Assembly: GCA_964529025.1 (NCBI GenBank)
Contig: CAZGUZ010000003.1
Coordinates: 22,368 to 86,367, forward strand
Length of the DNA: 64,000 nucleotides
DNA from: an uncultured Candidatus Saccharibacteria bacterium
GTDB taxonomy: Bacteria > Patescibacteriota > Minisyncoccia > Phycocordibacterales > PALSA-1337
Reading direction: 5' to 3'
Position 1 is the stretch's first letter. Each line of letters begins with the position of its first letter. This document shows positions 36,369 to 41,440 of this stretch, piece after piece. Both the position numbers and the translations under genes were made by a program. The notes under the pieces were generated by a model. The model searched no databases. It worked only from the letters and a program-made list of their open reading frames with translations, and was not told the DNA's origin.

Positions 36369-37382
36369 ATGTCGCACAATCTAGAGGCACTCAAAAGACA
36401 GTTTCTTGAATATGTAGAAATTGAAAAGGGGCGCAGCCTCAGTACAGTTATGAATTATGAGCACTATTTATCACGTTTTATCGACTTTTCAGGGGCAAAA
36501 AACGTAGAAGATATAACAGATTCAGGTATACGAGAGTACCGTTTATGGCTCAACCGCCAAGAAGCAAGGACATTGCGTACTGGAATCAAAGAAACACTTA
36601 AGCGACGCACTCAAAACTATTATCTTATTGCTTTGCGTTCTTTTCTTAAGTATTTGGCTCGCCAAGGCATAAAAGCTGTGCCTCCAGAGCGCATTGAGCT
36701 CGCAAAAGTGCCCGAACGCTCGCTTGATCTGATTTCTAACGAAGATCTTGAAGCTTTGATGAAAGCGCCAGGAACATCAACATTGAAAGGATTACGCGAT
36801 ACTGCCCTTTTAGAGCTATTATTCTCAACGGGTTTGCGCGTATCTGAGCTTTGTGGCCTACATAGAGATATAAATTTGTCACGCGATGAATTCCCTGTTC
36901 GAGGAAAAGGCGAAAAAGTTCGAGTAGTCTTTCTTTCTGATGCAGCAAAGAGGTCAGTAAGGCTGTATTTAGATGCTCGAAAAGATATGGACGATGCTCT
37001 GTTTGTGCAATTGCCCGTACATGAAAGAAGAAAGAATAGTAATGGGGCAAAGAATGGAGTAAAGAGTGGAGCAAAGACACAAAAATCTTCAGTAAAATCA
37101 CGGAATTCGGGATCAATGCGACTTACTCCACGGTCCGTCGAAAGAATAATCAAATTTTATGCAATTAAAGCCGGAATATCAAAAAAAGTGACGCCTCACG
37201 TTATTCGTCACTCTTTTGCTACTGATTTATTGAGAAATGGCGCAGATATTCGCTCAGTACAAATGCTTTTGGGCCATGCAAATATCGGAACCACACAGAT
37301 TTATACCCATATTACTGACAGCGAACTCCGAAATGTTCACAAGAAGTTTCACAGTAAGAGCCGAGAAAATAACTCAAAATAG
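36369..37382 (+). CDS. Tyrosine recombinase XerC/XerD-like with a roughly 45-aa Lys/Ser-rich insertion
   Basis: Catalytic R...HxxR...Y set (RHSFATDLL, LLGHANIGTTQIYTHI) and the insertion KNSNGAKNGVKSGAKTQKSSVKSRNSGS. Confidence 0.85.
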   Translation: MSHNLEALKRQFLEYVEIEKGRSLSTVMNYEHYLSRFIDFSGAKNVEDITDSGIREYRLWLNRQEARTLRTGIKETLKRRTQNYYLIALRSFLKYLARQGIKAVPPERIELAKVPERSLDLISNEDLEALMKAPGTSTLKGLRDTALLELLFSTGLRVSELCGLHRDINLSRDEFPVRGKGEKVRVVFLSDAAKRSVRLYLDARKDMDDALFVQLPVHERRKNSNGAKNGVKSGAKTQKSSVKSRNSGSMRLTPRSVERIIKFYAIKAGISKKVTPHVIRHSFATDLLRNGADIRSVQMLLGHANIGTTQIYTHITDSELRNVHKKFHSKSRENNSK

Positions 37383-37982
37383 CTATTTGTTGAGAGCGAT
37401 TTGCTGCAAATCCCCTGTTATACCCGTTACATCACCTTCAATTCCTGTTGCATTACCAGTAGCACCGCTTGCATCCCCTTCAAGATTGGTTACATTCCCA
37501 AAAATATTGGTAACATCACCTTTAAGATTTGTAATATTTCCCTCTATGTGAGAAACATCTCCCTTAAGGTTTGAAATATCACCAATTAAATCACTCACAT
37601 CGCCCCGAACGTTCGTAACGTCGCCACGAAGTGTGGTTACATTTCCTGAAATATTGGTAACTTCGCCGCGAATTCCACTTAAATCACCCGAAAGATCACT
37701 AATGTCACCAGCAACAAAAGTCGTATCGCCTCTTACGTGAGTCACTTCCCCGCTAATATTCGATACATCGCCCGAAAGGCCAGAAATATCACCCTTTATT
37801 TTTGTGGCATCACCCCGAATTTTGTGAATTGTAATATCGCCATAAATATTTGAAACATCACCAACGAGATCACTAAAATCACCCCAAACTTCGGGATGAA
37901 GGCCCGTCACCTTTTCTGTATTAATCTGTCTGCGCGTAGTTGTGTGGTGGATCATACGTTTAAATATATTAGAAGTATACAA
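37383..37982 (-). CDS. Protein built from about 22 tandem heptapeptide repeats G-D-[VI]-[ST]-[ND]-[IL]-x, hypothetical
   Basis: The translation shows near-perfect 7-aa periodicity (GDVSNIS GEVTHVR GDTTFVA GDISDLS ...) on a 21-nt DNA periodicity. Its stop abuts the xerC stop (convergent). Confidence 0.55.
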   Translation of the reverse strand: MYTSNIFKRMIHHTTTRRQINTEKVTGLHPEVWGDFSDLVGDVSNIYGDITIHKIRGDATKIKGDISGLSGDVSNISGEVTHVRGDTTFVAGDISDLSGDLSGIRGEVTNISGNVTTLRGDVTNVRGDVSDLIGDISNLKGDVSHIEGNITNLKGDVTNIFGNVTNLEGDASGATGNATGIEGDVTGITGDLQQIALNK

Positions 37983-38012
37983 GGACTTCGTAAGATGTGC
38001 TATGATGCCAGC

Positions 38013-38789
38013 ATGAAAATTATCTCATGGAACGTTAATGGCTTGCGCGCAAACGCAAAGAAAGGTGGTTTTGATTGGATACTTGCGCAAAATGCTGACG
38101 TCTTCTGTTTTCAAGAAACAAAAGCTCATCCAGATCAGCTTCCAGAAAATGTTCGAAATCCGCAAGGCTACCATTCGTTTTTTGATCACTCCAAGGTTCG
38201 TAAGGGATATAGTGGTGTTGCAATATATAGCAAAGTAGAGCCAGATTCTGTTGATTATGGCATGGGTATTGAAGAGTTTGACCAAGAAGGTCGCATGCTC
38301 GCTGCTTTTTTTGGAAAAATAGTAGTAATTACAGCATATTTCCCTAATGGTGGCGGTGGCCAACATAGATTAGAGTATAAGCTTCGATTTTACGATGCTT
38401 TTTTACTGTATATTGATAAGCTCAAGAAAAAAGGCTATGGAATTGTGTTCTGTGGCGATGTTAATACTGCACATACAGAAATTGATTTGGCGCGACCAAA
38501 AGAGAATAAAGAGAATACCGGTTTCTTGCCAATTGAAAGAGAGTGGATCGATCAGGTTATTGACCATGGGTATGTGGATATTTTTAGAGAAAAGAATCCT
38601 CGAGCACTCGATGTGTATACATATTGGGATATGAAAACAGCTGCGCGTGAAAGAAATGTTGGTTGGAGAATCGATTATTTTTTCATTTCGCGTTCTTTAG
38701 TTGAGTCTGTAAAAAACGTTGTAATACATAGTGATATCTTTGGTTCTGACCACTGTCCTATTGCAATTGAAATAAAAAAAGTTGGTTAG
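38013..38789 (+). CDS. xth: Exodeoxyribonuclease III (AP endonuclease)
   Basis: MKIISWNVNGLRA, QETK, and a C-terminal SDHCP catalytic-His region. The start is set at the conserved MKIISWN ATG; the 39-codon upstream extension in the ORF track is non-homologous. Confidence 0.9.
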   Translation: MKIISWNVNGLRANAKKGGFDWILAQNADVFCFQETKAHPDQLPENVRNPQGYHSFFDHSKVRKGYSGVAIYSKVEPDSVDYGMGIEEFDQEGRMLAAFFGKIVVITAYFPNGGGGQHRLEYKLRFYDAFLLYIDKLKKKGYGIVFCGDVNTAHTEIDLARPKENKENTGFLPIEREWIDQVIDHGYVDIFREKNPRALDVYTYWDMKTAARERNVGWRIDYFFISRSLVESVKNVVIHSDIFGSDHCPIAIEIKKVG

Positions 38790-39255: not shown

Positions 39256-40758
39256 CTAGGAAACGTGATATTTTGAACGTATTTTATCTATTTCTTGTTT
39301 TTCAACCTCCTCTTTTTTAGTTCTACCCCTATCTGCAAGTTCCTTAAGTTGCTCAGGTTTCATGTTTAACATCTCTTGTGAGCGTTTCATGAGAAACTCT
39401 TTTGTATTTAACTGAGGGTCTTCAATGACTTCTTCAAGCAAAGCATTAAGAATAAGGCCAATTGTGGGTCCTGCAGGTATATTAAGCTCTTTAATGAGTG
39501 TTGTGCCATCAATTTTAAGCATTCCTACGGTAACGGGGTCATGCAAGGCTTCCTCGATCATAGCCTTATATTTGCGAAGGCGATATGGGTCTTCCTTGGG
39601 TCTTCCCGTCCCTATTCGATCGCAAATGCGAAGATTCATAAGGTCCCAAATGTTTTCACGACCCACATTTACTATCATTCTGCGTACGGCTGATAGAGTG
39701 ATTGACTCTGTGTCTGTGAAAAACATGTGCCAGCGCACCAATTTTACTATCTTTTCAATAGTTTTCTTCGGATAATGCATCCTTTCAAGGATTCTCTGTG
39801 TTACACGTGAACCAACTACTTCATGGCCGTAAAACGTGTATGTGCCTGTTTCATGCGAAACACGACGGGTTTCAGGCTTTGAAATGTCGTGTAATAGAGC
39901 TGCTAAGCGAATATCGAGCGGCCAACCCTTACCTGCTGCACCTTCAAGACTATAAAGAAGGTGGTTATATACGTCATATTCATGCGTTCCGCGCTGTTCT
40001 ATGCCTATACCCTGCTCGAGTTCCGGTATGATATAACGCAAAATACCAAGCTTTTGACAGCGGATAATGCCTTCTCGCGGAGAGCTACTCATAAGAATCT
40101 TATTAAATTCATCACGAATGCGCTCTATAGCAATGTGTTTGAGTAATTCAGAATGCTCTAAAATGGCCTTTTCTGCTTCAGCGTTAATCGTGAAACCTAG
40201 TTCGGCAGCCAATCTCACGGCTCTAACCATGCGCAAAGCATCTTCTTTAAAACGGTCTTCGGGCTTCCCTACGGTACGTAATACTTTGTCCTTTATATCA
40301 TCTTGTCCTTTATAAAAGTCAATGATTTCGGTGATTTTTCCATCTTTTATGCCCATTGCTACAGCATTTACGGTAAAGTCTCGCCTTTCAATATCGTCAC
40401 TGAGTTTTGTGCTAAAACTTACACTGTCTGGCCTACGATAATCGCTATAGGTAGTTTCGGTGCGGTATGGAGTAACCTCAATGATCTTAAGTGTTTCATC
40501 TTGGGTATTTTCATCAACTACTCCAACTGTACCAAAGGTGTTTTCGTAGAATGTCTTTGGAAATAGAGAAATAATCTGTTCTGGCGTGGCATTTGTTGTA
40601 ATATCCCAGTCTTTTGGCTTTCTGCCGAGTATGAGGTCACGTGTACAGCCACCAATGAGATAAGCCTCATACCCTGCTCCAATAAGGATCTGGGCCGTAA
40701 TTGCAACTTCGCGAGGTATAGAGAATGCGTATTGATCAAGGTTCGCCGAGAGTTTCAT
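39256..40758 (-). CDS. cca: CCA-adding tRNA nucleotidyltransferase with HD domain
   Basis: PolyA-polymerase head GGCTRDLILGRKPKDWDITTNATPEQ, an HD motif LLHDISKP, and a start at the MKLSANLDQY ATG (40758). The longer ORF-track version runs antisense across two tRNA genes. Confidence 0.85.
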   Translation of the reverse strand: MKLSANLDQYAFSIPREVAITAQILIGAGYEAYLIGGCTRDLILGRKPKDWDITTNATPEQIISLFPKTFYENTFGTVGVVDENTQDETLKIIEVTPYRTETTYSDYRRPDSVSFSTKLSDDIERRDFTVNAVAMGIKDGKITEIIDFYKGQDDIKDKVLRTVGKPEDRFKEDALRMVRAVRLAAELGFTINAEAEKAILEHSELLKHIAIERIRDEFNKILMSSSPREGIIRCQKLGILRYIIPELEQGIGIEQRGTHEYDVYNHLLYSLEGAAGKGWPLDIRLAALLHDISKPETRRVSHETGTYTFYGHEVVGSRVTQRILERMHYPKKTIEKIVKLVRWHMFFTDTESITLSAVRRMIVNVGRENIWDLMNLRICDRIGTGRPKEDPYRLRKYKAMIEEALHDPVTVGMLKIDGTTLIKELNIPAGPTIGLILNALLEEVIEDPQLNTKEFLMKRSQEMLNMKPEQLKELADRGRTKKEEVEKQEIDKIRSKYHVS

Positions 40759-40825
40759 GTGTAAATTATAGAATAACTTTGGACTTTTACCTAGTTTTGG
40801 AGTAGTATACGTATGTTCGCAGTTT

Positions 40826-40897
40826 GCTCTCGTGGTGAAATGGATATCATACCGGTCTTCGGAACCGTTGTTGGGGGTTCGAATCCCTCCGGGAGCA
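40826..40897 (+). tRNA. tRNA-Arg (anticodon TCG), 72 nt, no encoded CCA
   Basis: Hand fold: acceptor GCUCUCG/CGGGAGC (one G-U), D-stem GUGA/UCAU with a GG loop, anticodon loop CU-UCG-GA, T-arm GGGGG-UUCGAAU-CCCUC. One mismatch at the top of the anticodon stem. Confidence 0.6.
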
Positions 40898-40976
40898 CAA
40901 GATGTATACATTACTTGGCTTTTTAGCAGAGTATTGTATACTCTTAAGCAAGTGAAAAGGTGTTCTGTTTGATAAT

Positions 40977-41047
40977 GCGGGTATGGTTTAGTGGTAGAAC
41001 ACGTCCTTGCCAAGGACGAGATGGGAGTTCGATTCTCCCTACCCGCA
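40977..41047 (+). tRNA. tRNA-Gly (anticodon GCC), 71 nt, no encoded CCA
   Basis: Perfect 7-bp acceptor GCGGGUA/UACCCGC, anticodon stem CGUCC/GGACG with loop UU-GCC-AA, and T-arm GGGAG-UUCGAUU-CUCCC. Confidence 0.75.
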
Positions 41048-41440
41048 CATACGACCCCTCGATAGTTACTATTGTTAGTGTGCTACATGGTGTGTAACGG
41101 TAATTTGTGCACGTTTAAGTTATACGACACTTGCGGTAAAGGCTAAAGACATATTGCACATTATCGACAAAAGCCTTTTATGGCCGAAGACTTTTACACA
41201 GTTATCCCCTTAAATTGTGGATAACTCAGGGGAAAAGTGTATATCTAAGTCAAAGACTTTGGCTTATACAGATCTTAAACGACAAAGTGTGGCTTATTTA
41301 CGTTGTTCGTTAAACATGTAACGTTTCACGTGAAAACAAATGACTGTATCTATTGAGCTCATTAAAGCGCCATAAAGTAATTAAAGAAAAATTGAAGATC
41401 ATTTCATCTTTTCTTAATGTAGGTTTGTCATGCTGTATGC

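Follow-up and report, generated by a model that had tools for sequence, protein, structure and literature searches.

The DNA analysed here, the window, is a stretch of 64,000 nucleotides from an uncultured Candidatus Saccharibacteria bacterium. On its minus strand lies a gene whose product consists of a short N-terminal segment and a tandem array of seven-residue units that open with Gly followed by Asp, Asn or Glu (Table 1). The gene is real and conserved, and it belongs to a sizeable family that has no curated description.

Table 1. The repeat gene, its parts and the adjoining features in the window (aa, amino acid residues of the repeat protein)
Feature	Position	Strand	Basis or remark
Heptapeptide-repeat protein, coding sequence, 190 aa from ATG 37955	37383..37955	minus	stop codon 37383-37385; open reading frame listing, orthologue N-termini, codon-position conservation
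In-frame upstream extension to TTG, 9 codons (MYTSNIFKR)	37956..37982	minus	orthologues begin at the ATG position
N-terminal segment, aa 1-17 (MIHHTTTRRQINTEKVT), subfamily motif NTExV	37905..37955	minus	common to P0003, P0004, P0185 and the orthologues in L006 and L007
Degenerate first unit GLHPEVW, aa 18-24	37884..37904	minus	in orthologues and small capped relatives alike, G-x-H-x-x-[IV]-x stands ahead of the array (GVHSNIR, GIHDGIR, others)
Units 1-2 (GDFSDLV, GDVSNIY), aa 25-38	37842..37883	minus	sequence in register
Unit 3, sole 9-residue unit (GDITIHKIR), aa 39-47	37815..37841	minus	conserved in relatives
Units 4-23, twenty unbroken heptads ending GDLQQIA, aa 48-187	37395..37814	minus	aligns with both orthologues without gaps
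C-terminal tail LNK, aa 188-190	37386..37394	minus	sequence; C-terminal module of the phage subfamily absent
XerC/D-type tyrosine recombinase	36369..37382	plus	Pfam Phage_integrase 5.9e-40 and SAM-like N-terminal domain; convergent, stop abuts that of the repeat gene
Exodeoxyribonuclease III-type nuclease (xth)	38013..38789	plus	Pfam Exo_endo_phos 1.5e-31 from residue 4; divergent; start taken as ATG 38013 (MKIISWNVNG)
AT-rich divergent intergenic region, repeat gene/xth, 57 bp	37956..38012		TAATATATTTAAA just upstream of the repeat-gene ATG

The gene and its repeat array

We ran a pattern scan over one genome per species and found two relatives in Parcubacteria, in metagenome-assembled genomes of Candidatus Vogelbacteria (locus L006) and Candidatus Paceibacteria (locus L007). 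Each has an open reading frame (ORF) of 190 residues, and the 23 units of the three proteins, the nine-residue third unit included, align without gaps at 48-56% identity. A mechanical ORF call extends the window gene to a TTG at 37982 (37383..37982, minus strand, 199 residues), the start adopted in a preliminary description of this DNA. We consider ATG 37955 the more probable start, and a product of 190 rather than 199 residues, because the N-termini of both orthologues align to MIHHTTT...; the nine-codon extension has no conserved counterpart in this N-terminal alignment and probably lies outside the translated product.

The minus-strand frame is the sole one open across all three genomes, and identity between the orthologues at codon positions 1, 2 and 3 is 0.62-0.63, 0.74-0.82 and 0.31-0.36, with third positions close to saturation. 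Judged by these patterns, the ORF is a protein-coding gene on the minus strand under purifying selection. The preliminary description had left room for a true gene on the opposite strand; this was checked and is ruled out by the minus frame alone being open in the three genomes together with the matching codon-position pattern. The protein is acidic (isoelectric point, pI, 4.6) and contains no catalytic motifs. As had been described, it lacks a signal peptide, with no hydrophobic stretch visible in the N-terminal sequence.

Twenty-three tandem units, 22 heptads and one conserved nonamer, make up the array, with the consensus G-[D/N]-[V/I]-[S/T]-x-[I/L/V]-x. Position 1 is Gly and position 2 Asp, Asn or Glu in 23/23 units; aliphatic residues fill positions 3 and 6, and Ser or Thr position 4. 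Matches to the strict motif G[DNE][VILCA][ST]x[ILVM]x number 18 in the repeat ORF vs 3 elsewhere in the six-frame translation of the window. The period of seven given earlier holds for 22/23 units, and the tandem array reported then is real, although its layout of a roughly 30-residue N-terminal segment and about 22 heptads gives way to a segment of 24 residues, cap unit included, followed by 23 units. In the degenerate unit before the array (GLHPEVW) a His occupies the position of the core Val, making this unit a candidate N-terminal cap. The nonamer is matched by GDVTLHRIN in L006, GDINLHRIT in L007 and GDIYLYRII in the relative P0185, and by an eight-residue GPIPPGFT in P0004. The C-terminal cap module DxCEITxEERxxGIxIxDLI, found in the phage subfamily described below, is not present in the window protein.

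At the DNA level the repeat is old: Tandem Repeats Finder recovered no more than 3.3 copies, matching at 60%, and Gly is encoded by a mixture of codons (GGT 12, GGC 8, GGA 5, GGG 4). Gly is kept at 69/69 unit positions across the three orthologues, at which depth of divergence only 31-36% of third codon positions are identical. A slippage-prone or contingency repeat was considered and rejected, given the diverged DNA repeats, the mixed Gly codons and the constant unit number; the check for varying repeat number that had been proposed for related genomes was run and gave 23 units in all orthologues. Similarity between units was 0.444 at lag 2, 0.438 at lag 1 and 0.418 at lag 3. A super-period of 14 or 21 residues was likewise rejected, the lag-2 excess being very small and unit numbers of the capped relatives described below having no mod-2 or mod-3 preference.

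The wider family

A word-indexed search returned 38 relatives, and a profile built from them found 188 at E<=1e-5 (proteins are numbered P and loci L). When 1.84 billion cluster representatives were searched exhaustively with phmmer, 4812 matched at E<=1e-3, of which 677 reached E<=1e-10; very long proteins with several arrays make up many of these matches. A single-protein scan of viral contigs gave no match. In 831 anchored family heptads, position 1 was Gly in 100%, position 2 Asp in 65% and Asn in 21%, position 3 Val in 76%, position 4 Ser in 69% and Thr in 31%, position 5 Gly in 33%, Asn in 26% and Asp in 6%, and position 6 Ile in 49% and Leu in 42%; position 7 was variable (R, S, T, E, K). 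Eight-residue units are the main length variant (69/1234 family units), and their extra residue, often Pro (GEVSPGLE), always falls between positions 4 and 6 (GNVSPNLH, GDISDGLY, GKVHPTLT). Of 124 relatives, 37 have Pro within in-phase units, at positions 2-5 and in no case at 6 or 7. In the 194-residue P0004, Pro appears in five units after the cap, GPIPPGFT, GRPEGLI and GYPGRLY among them, and in 2/5 of these it replaces the core Val.

The subfamily of the window protein comprises P0003, P0004, P0185 and the two orthologues, which share the N-terminal motif NTExVxGxHPxVWGDF. A second group contains at least 45 small capped proteins (P0014-P0120), mostly of 90-130 residues, with an N-terminal YHxxDGxKVxGxH, 5-17 GDVSxIx units and a C-terminal G(D/N)xDxCEITxEERxxGIxIxDLI that includes a conserved Cys; multiples of 2 or 3 are not preferred among their unit counts. 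We examined five contigs, carrying four capped members and the uncapped P0008, and 5/5 were phage-like with many small unannotated genes (L004, L005, L008, L013, L014); neighbours there include genes for DNA polymerase, ParB, HNH, DUF2800, SNF2 helicase and methyltransferase. Overall, the family occurs in reduced genomes of the Candidate Phyla Radiation (CPR), including chromosomes of CPR-like type, on phage-like contigs and in a Micrarchaeaceae (DPANN) archaeon.

Arrays are also fused to other domains: a domain resembling protein kinases (a PP2C-like gene lies alongside), DUF7296, a zinc-finger/membrane-like part in which a hydrophobic C-terminus comes after a CxxC-rich segment, and a C-terminal segment with the P-loop GANGTGKT, which we take to be an ATPase. 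On a 210-kb contig (L011, 6001-11288), the kinase-like P0066, with its GD-heptad array at the C-terminus, lies directly upstream of a 1248-residue protein with faint to weak PP2C matches, and three similar kinase-repeat fusions were seen (P0052, P0057, P0072). P0067 (550 residues) joins a 125-residue GD-heptad array with a window-type N-terminus (INTNDVTCLHPGVWGNF) in frame to a secretin that retains an apparent signal peptide of its own (MRLALFIALLTYGLMNGAHA), and is probably a gene-call fusion of two adjacent genes. In P0137, P0145 and P0148 (1200-1540 residues) GD-heptad arrays stand at both ends of an Ala-rich region of about 900 residues, and the C-terminus is cap-like (…GDLSEIPIKRR…). 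P0125 and P0164 have Cys for the core Val in nearly every unit (GDCSNISGDCSNIQGN…), which would form a continuous Cys stack in any regular fold.

Pfam, NCBIfam and PHROG contain no family built on the caps or on the array itself, Pfam gives no match of any kind for P0051 and P0086, and in the literature collection searched no paper has the motif strings in a relevant setting or reports a heptapeptide beta-helix of this sort. With at least 188 proteins, a strict seven-residue unit, fixed caps and clear purifying selection, this is a coherent family that has gone uncurated.

Fold and possible role of the array

The best explanation we can offer for the array, and one we hold tentatively, is a beta-helical rod with kinks, probably intertwined as an oligomer in the manner of phage T4 gp5 but with a unit one residue shorter. 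The needle of gp5 is built on the motif VxGxxxxx, with a hydrogen-bonded ladder of Asn/Asp at the second position and alternating Glu/Lys at the last (PMC4576200). In the sequence of a T4-type gp5, the C-terminal beta-helix runs through the units GDETKTVE, GNGTILVK, GNVTIVVE, GNADITVK, GDATTLVE and GNQTNTVN. Like these units (Gp5_C PF06715, Gp5_trimer_C PF22178), the heptad opens with an invariant Gly and Asp or Asn, has Thr or Ser fourth, keeps an aliphatic residue in the penultimate position and ends in a charged or variable one; GNVTIVVE and GDATTLVE of gp5 may be set beside GNVTNLE and GDATKIK of the window protein. The gp5 unit G-[D/N]-x-T-x-x-V-[E/K] equals the window motif with a single residue added between Thr and the aliphatic position, and the family's own eight-residue units bear their extra residue at that place. 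Both the kink Gly and the ladder residue of gp5 recur in the 831 family heptads (Gly in 100%; Asp or Asn at position 2 in 86%).

We then edited the sequences by single residues. With one unknown residue inserted after position 4 of every heptad, the window protein matched Gp5_trimer_C at E=2.6e-6 and 28.0 bits (cutoff 30.9), and its coiled-coil matches vanished. Insertion after position 5 gave 22.4 bits, after 2 or 3 weaker matches, and after 1, 6 or 7 none; real gp5 scores 39.7 and 85.9 bits on the Pfam models. Among other family sequences carrying a one-residue insertion, P0005 reached 27.5 bits and the orthologues and P0016 15-19 bits, and the coiled-coil controls SlaB and gp26 gave no Gp5_trimer_C match. 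In the opposite direction, gp5 octads that lacked position 5 or 6 scored 33 bits on a hidden Markov model of the family heptads, where native gp5 scored 5.9 bits; of the eight single deletions, these did best. On this evidence the relationship to gp5 is one of motif resemblance, not membership. The window unit differs from that of gp5 in its period of 7 (22/23 units) rather than 8, so that strand alternation must break once per unit; and the window protein, a stand-alone chromosomal CPR product, has neither a lysozyme, OB-fold or PAAR partner nor a baseplate context.

In the structure that we propose, the gene would specify a cytoplasmic, acidic, non-enzymatic rod protein in which each of the 23 units contributes a short beta-strand segment and a Gly-Asp/Asn kink, giving a beta-helix rather than an alpha-helical coiled coil; its most likely form would be an intertwined oligomer, a trimer like the C-terminal needle of gp5. 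The invariant Gly would make the kink, Asp/Asn at position 2 would form a ladder of hydrogen bonds at the surface, and Val/Ile at position 3 and Ile/Leu at position 6 would fill the core. The turn-prone position 5 (G/N/D) would take up the missing residue as a bulge, and the variable positions 5 and 7 would form the exposed surface. In the capped proteins, unit numbers of 5-17 without preference for multiples of 2 or 3 suit a fibre in which each unit is self-contained. The anatomy and context suggest a rigid self-assembling rod that may serve as an oligomerisation or scaffold module, a role we propose because of the absence of catalytic motifs, the fixed 23 units, the variable and presumably exposed positions 5 and 7, the fusions and the phage-like contigs.

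We also modelled the window protein and the capped relative P0086 (108 residues) as monomers with AlphaFold2. The window model had a predicted local distance difference test score (pLDDT) of 55 and showed five-residue strands at positions 3-7 joined by GD connectors, with no helix in the repeats. The best P0086 model (pLDDT 79) had an N-terminal hairpin, repeats with neither helix nor strand, and short C-terminal helices, a pattern that fits a chain taken from an intertwined oligomer, being compatible with one but non-diagnostic. Foldseek returned weak matches of the window model to parallel beta-helices and pentapeptide-repeat proteins.

A number of observations weigh against a gp5-type rod. 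All Gp5 scores come from artificially edited sequence and lie below the Pfam cutoff, and the native window sequence has no match to the Pfam gp5 models at E<=10. The GD-heptads of P0124, a trimeric autotransporter, also match Gp5_trimer_C after the one-residue insertion (18 bits), so the insertion test recognises the G-[DN]-V-[ST] motif and not a fold. In their natural order the gp5 deletions rank only 126-129 of 5040 position permutations. The bulge at position 5 is an assumption, made because a seven-residue unit cannot keep a simple in/out strand alternation. Confidence in the AlphaFold models is low or uneven (predicted template-modelling scores of 0.36 and 0.39; 47-79 pLDDT across five P0086 models), Foldseek gave no significant structural match for the models, and Pro is absent inside units 1-21 of the window protein and both orthologues. 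We count the differing gene neighbourhoods described below on the same side, together with the points that favour a coiled coil.

A coiled coil would be alpha-helical, unusual and probably trimeric, with positions a, b, d, f and g taken by Val/Ile, Ser/Thr, Ile/Leu, Gly and Asp/Asn respectively, and it would liken the protein to the stalks, rich in Ser, Thr and Asn, that are found in phage needles, archaeal S-layer anchors and trimeric autotransporters; we consider it unlikely, while giving it a serious hearing. Positions 3 and 6 have the exact 3-4 spacing of a and d, and in >90% of the 831 family units, and likewise in the window protein, position 3 is V/I/L/A/C and position 6 I/L/V; the frequencies of beta-branched Val at position 3 (76%) and of Ile/Leu at position 6 (91%) are like the preferences of trimers. 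In its native phase the sequence matches only coiled-coil families and structures that we regard as trimeric coiled coils. The 199-residue ORF reached 40.6 bits on Pfam Baculo_PEP_C (PF04513; cutoff 38) over three stretches, with further Pfam matches to LPP, DUF1664, NPV_P10, FlaC_arch and Laminin_II. Among homologues, P0039 (31.6 bits) and P0048 (26 bits) fell below the Baculo_PEP_C cutoff, and P0004, P0051 and P0086 had no match. Because several unrelated coiled-coil families match the same residues, we read the Baculo_PEP_C match as periodicity, not homology. The native sequence also matched the NCBIfam SlaB model (1e-6), the PHROG tail needle protein (2e-9) and, best in the PDB, P22 gp26 (4LIN, E=5e-6) and SlaB (8QOX, E=8e-6), along with fragments of reovirus sigma-1, cavin, fibritin and SadA; we take all six solved proteins to be trimeric coiled-coil fibres.

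In the adhesin P0124 (1157 residues), GDVTTLQ/GNVTTLQ heptads follow directly on a neck motif and align with the Hia 3EMO segment GVTNLAGQVNNLEGKV, presumably a coiled-coil stalk. P0124 ends in an anchor-like sequence, its neck-like segments align to solved autotransporters, and the helix propensity of its heptads is equally poor (0.57); the solved Hia 3EMO sequence VTNLAGQVNNLEGKV has Gly at every seventh residue. The preliminary description held that Gly-Asp at fixed positions rules out a coiled coil. In that form the argument fails, given the a/d spacing, the coiled-coil-only native matches and the GD-heptads of P0124, as Gly at f excludes nothing alone.

Our case against the helix rests instead on the invariance of Gly under deep divergence, a second turn-prone position, the tolerance of proline and the behaviour of AlphaFold. 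An exposed f position would be expected to drift, yet Gly is found at 69/69 positions, and Ser or Thr occupies b in 100% of anchored units, in place of the free variation at b, c and f of a coiled coil. At position 5, 65% of family units carry G/N/D. Per heptad the window protein counts 1.2 Gly vs 0.2-0.5 in the aligned segments of the solved matches; its mean Pace-Scholtz helix cost per residue is 0.58 vs 0.42-0.46 kcal/mol, and 20% of its residues are helix formers (A, E, K, L, Q, M, R) vs 38-56% in aligned coiled-coil segments. High Gly, Pro inside the units of relatives and the lack of predicted helix all tell against a continuous helix, and homologues including P0004 carry both Pro at positions 2-5 and eight-residue units. 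No g-e' charge pairing was seen (observed/expected 1.01), other position pairs being likewise uncoupled. Coiled coils are usually predicted as helices even from monomers, and neither AlphaFold run gives helix in the repeats. In the capped relatives a helix N-cap box, T-E-E-x-R, opens the C-terminal module, which suggests that a helix starts there rather than continuing from the array.

Trimeric coiled-coil stalks (gp26 4LIN/2POH, SlaB 8QOX, Hia 3EMO, SadA 2YO2) share with the repeat protein a period of 7 and [IV]-[ST]-x-[LI] at a-d. In the stalks, however, Gly at f is occasional and f variable, and the aligned segments have no prolines or second glycines, unlike the GD-heptad family. Stalk proteins are extracellular fibres with heads or anchors, whereas the repeat protein is an N-terminal cap plus repeats, with no signal peptide, neck/head, YadA-type anchor or other domain. 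None of these points is decisive alone. A non-helical solenoid or beta-helix is still the likelier fold, and to that extent the solenoid of the preliminary description is supported.

In a narrower form, a single-chain beta-solenoid with two or three heptapeptide units per coil of a new beta-roll or beta-helix, the idea seems to us improbable. The stacked five-residue strands joined by GD in the AlphaFold window model, with its weak Foldseek matches to parallel beta-helices and pentapeptide-repeat proteins, would suit it, as would the conserved N- and C-terminal cap-like modules of relatives, the slightly higher unit similarity at lag 2 (0.444 vs 0.438 and 0.418) and the replacement of core Val by Cys throughout the arrays of P0125 and P0164. 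Yet pLDDT is only 55 with no significant structural match, hydrophobic residues three apart cannot share one core face in a straight strand, the number of units favours multiples of neither 2 nor 3, and the better-scored P0086 model has no intrachain strands. Known solenoid families had no sequence match either: a Pfam scan, which addressed the suggestion that the array might fall into one of them, listed among these an insignificant LbR_Ice_bind match (PF21300; E=5.2, 7.7 bits vs cutoff 30).

Pentapeptide (MfpA/Qnr) and hexapeptide (LpxA-type) beta-helices resemble the array in their short tandem units, fixed aliphatic core and Gly/Asp/Asn turns, and differ from it in having a period of 5 or 6 rather than 7 and alternating hydrophobic residues in place of 3-4 spacing. 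The Pfam scan at E<=10 found no hexapeptide, pentapeptide, bactofilin or YadA-head family, in agreement with the earlier placement of the protein outside the pentapeptide and hexapeptide families. The ryegrass antifreeze beta-roll (xxNxVxG) has two seven-residue half-coils per turn and a V-S-G tripeptide, and is the only solenoid known to us with a seven-residue motif that ends in Gly; it is secreted and ice-binding, with one hydrophobic position per unit, not two.

It is very improbable that the array is unstructured, serving as a spacer of low complexity or of disordered chain, or that the ORF arises as a side effect of an opposite-strand repeat, as low AlphaFold confidence for the window protein and the lack of a conserved neighbourhood might suggest, for five of seven positions are constrained, the glycines, unit number and nine-residue unit are kept at ~48-56% identity, selection is purifying in this frame with all others closed, and in composition the protein abounds in Val, Ile and Thr instead of residues that promote disorder.

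In its motif the window repeat falls between two known trimeric fibre motifs, the heptad coiled coil and the octapeptide beta-helix of gp5. A one-residue-shorter beta-helix of the gp5 type would, if confirmed, extend the rules of triple beta-helices and supply a new rod of tunable length, and would mean that profile matches to coiled-coil families can mislabel such proteins; a coiled coil, should that prove right after all, would be among the most helix-unfavourable known. A bolder proposal, which we regard as doubtful, is that the family represents an undescribed class of heptapeptide-repeat beta-helix, to be set beside the pentapeptide, hexapeptide and gp5 octapeptide repeats as their seven-residue equivalent and having a geometry of its own, with two kinks per unit. 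It would then be kept as a fixed 23-unit rod in Parcubacteria and deployed on phage-like contigs, among small unannotated and DNA-metabolism genes, as capped mini-rods of 5-17 units. The pentapeptide, hexapeptide and gp5 octapeptide folds are each distinct and designable, and serve in DNA mimicry, acyltransferase scaffolds and membrane-piercing needles. DNA-mimicking pentapeptide proteins are acidic, as is the repeat protein (pI 4.6), and on the bolder proposal such acidic rods could act as nucleic-acid mimics or as traps for host factors; the DNA mimic suggested in the preliminary description fits both the acidity and the phage setting.

Neighbouring genes

The repeat gene is surrounded by rpsO, a NYN-domain gene, xerC, xth and the gene of a CCA-adding enzyme. 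A prophage location was considered and is unsupported, the neighbours being chromosomal housekeeping genes. Its convergence with xerC at zero spacing, as described earlier, is borne out by stop codons that abut (37380-37382 and 37383-37385). On the other side, the nuclease domain begins at MKIISWNVNG, so we take ATG 38013 as the start of xth, leaving the 57-bp divergent spacer; the listed xth ORF from ATG 37896, with 37896-38012 as its extra stretch, would overlap the repeat gene by ~60 nt. Direct reading of 37956..38012 showed no Shine-Dalgarno-like sequence, and a consensus promoter scan gave no significant match there.

Neighbouring genes differ between the genomes compared (window, L006, L007 and L009), and no conserved operon or synteny was found. 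In L006 the gene lies beside uppP and a putative YdjM-like membrane protein, in L007 beside an unannotated 427-residue ORF and a putative rsmE, and in L009 beside a peptidase and YdjM. As these neighbourhoods are not conserved, no pathway can be assigned. The sole recurring neighbour across the four chromosomal contexts is a small YdjM or YdjM-like membrane protein, which is the convergent gene in 2/4 of them (L006 6605-7111, minus strand; L009 3078-3653, minus strand); that of L009 is Pfam YdjM, and that of L006 was judged YdjM-like by eye.

Within xerC, a 12-bp tandem repeat (AATGGAGCAAAG, 3.1 copies, 37041-37077) falls in a Lys/Ser/Gly-rich stretch (…NSNGAKNGVKSGAKTQKSSVKSRNSGS…) of the recombinase; we know of no such insertion in typical XerC/D proteins. 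The mechanical ORF of the CCA-adding enzyme (39256-41013, minus strand, 585 residues, TTG start) overruns two tRNA genes on the opposite strand, tRNA-Arg(tcg) at 40826-40898 and tRNA-Gly(gcc) at 40977-41048 (both plus strand). Its true start lies well downstream of the TTG, because the Pfam domain begins at residue 117.

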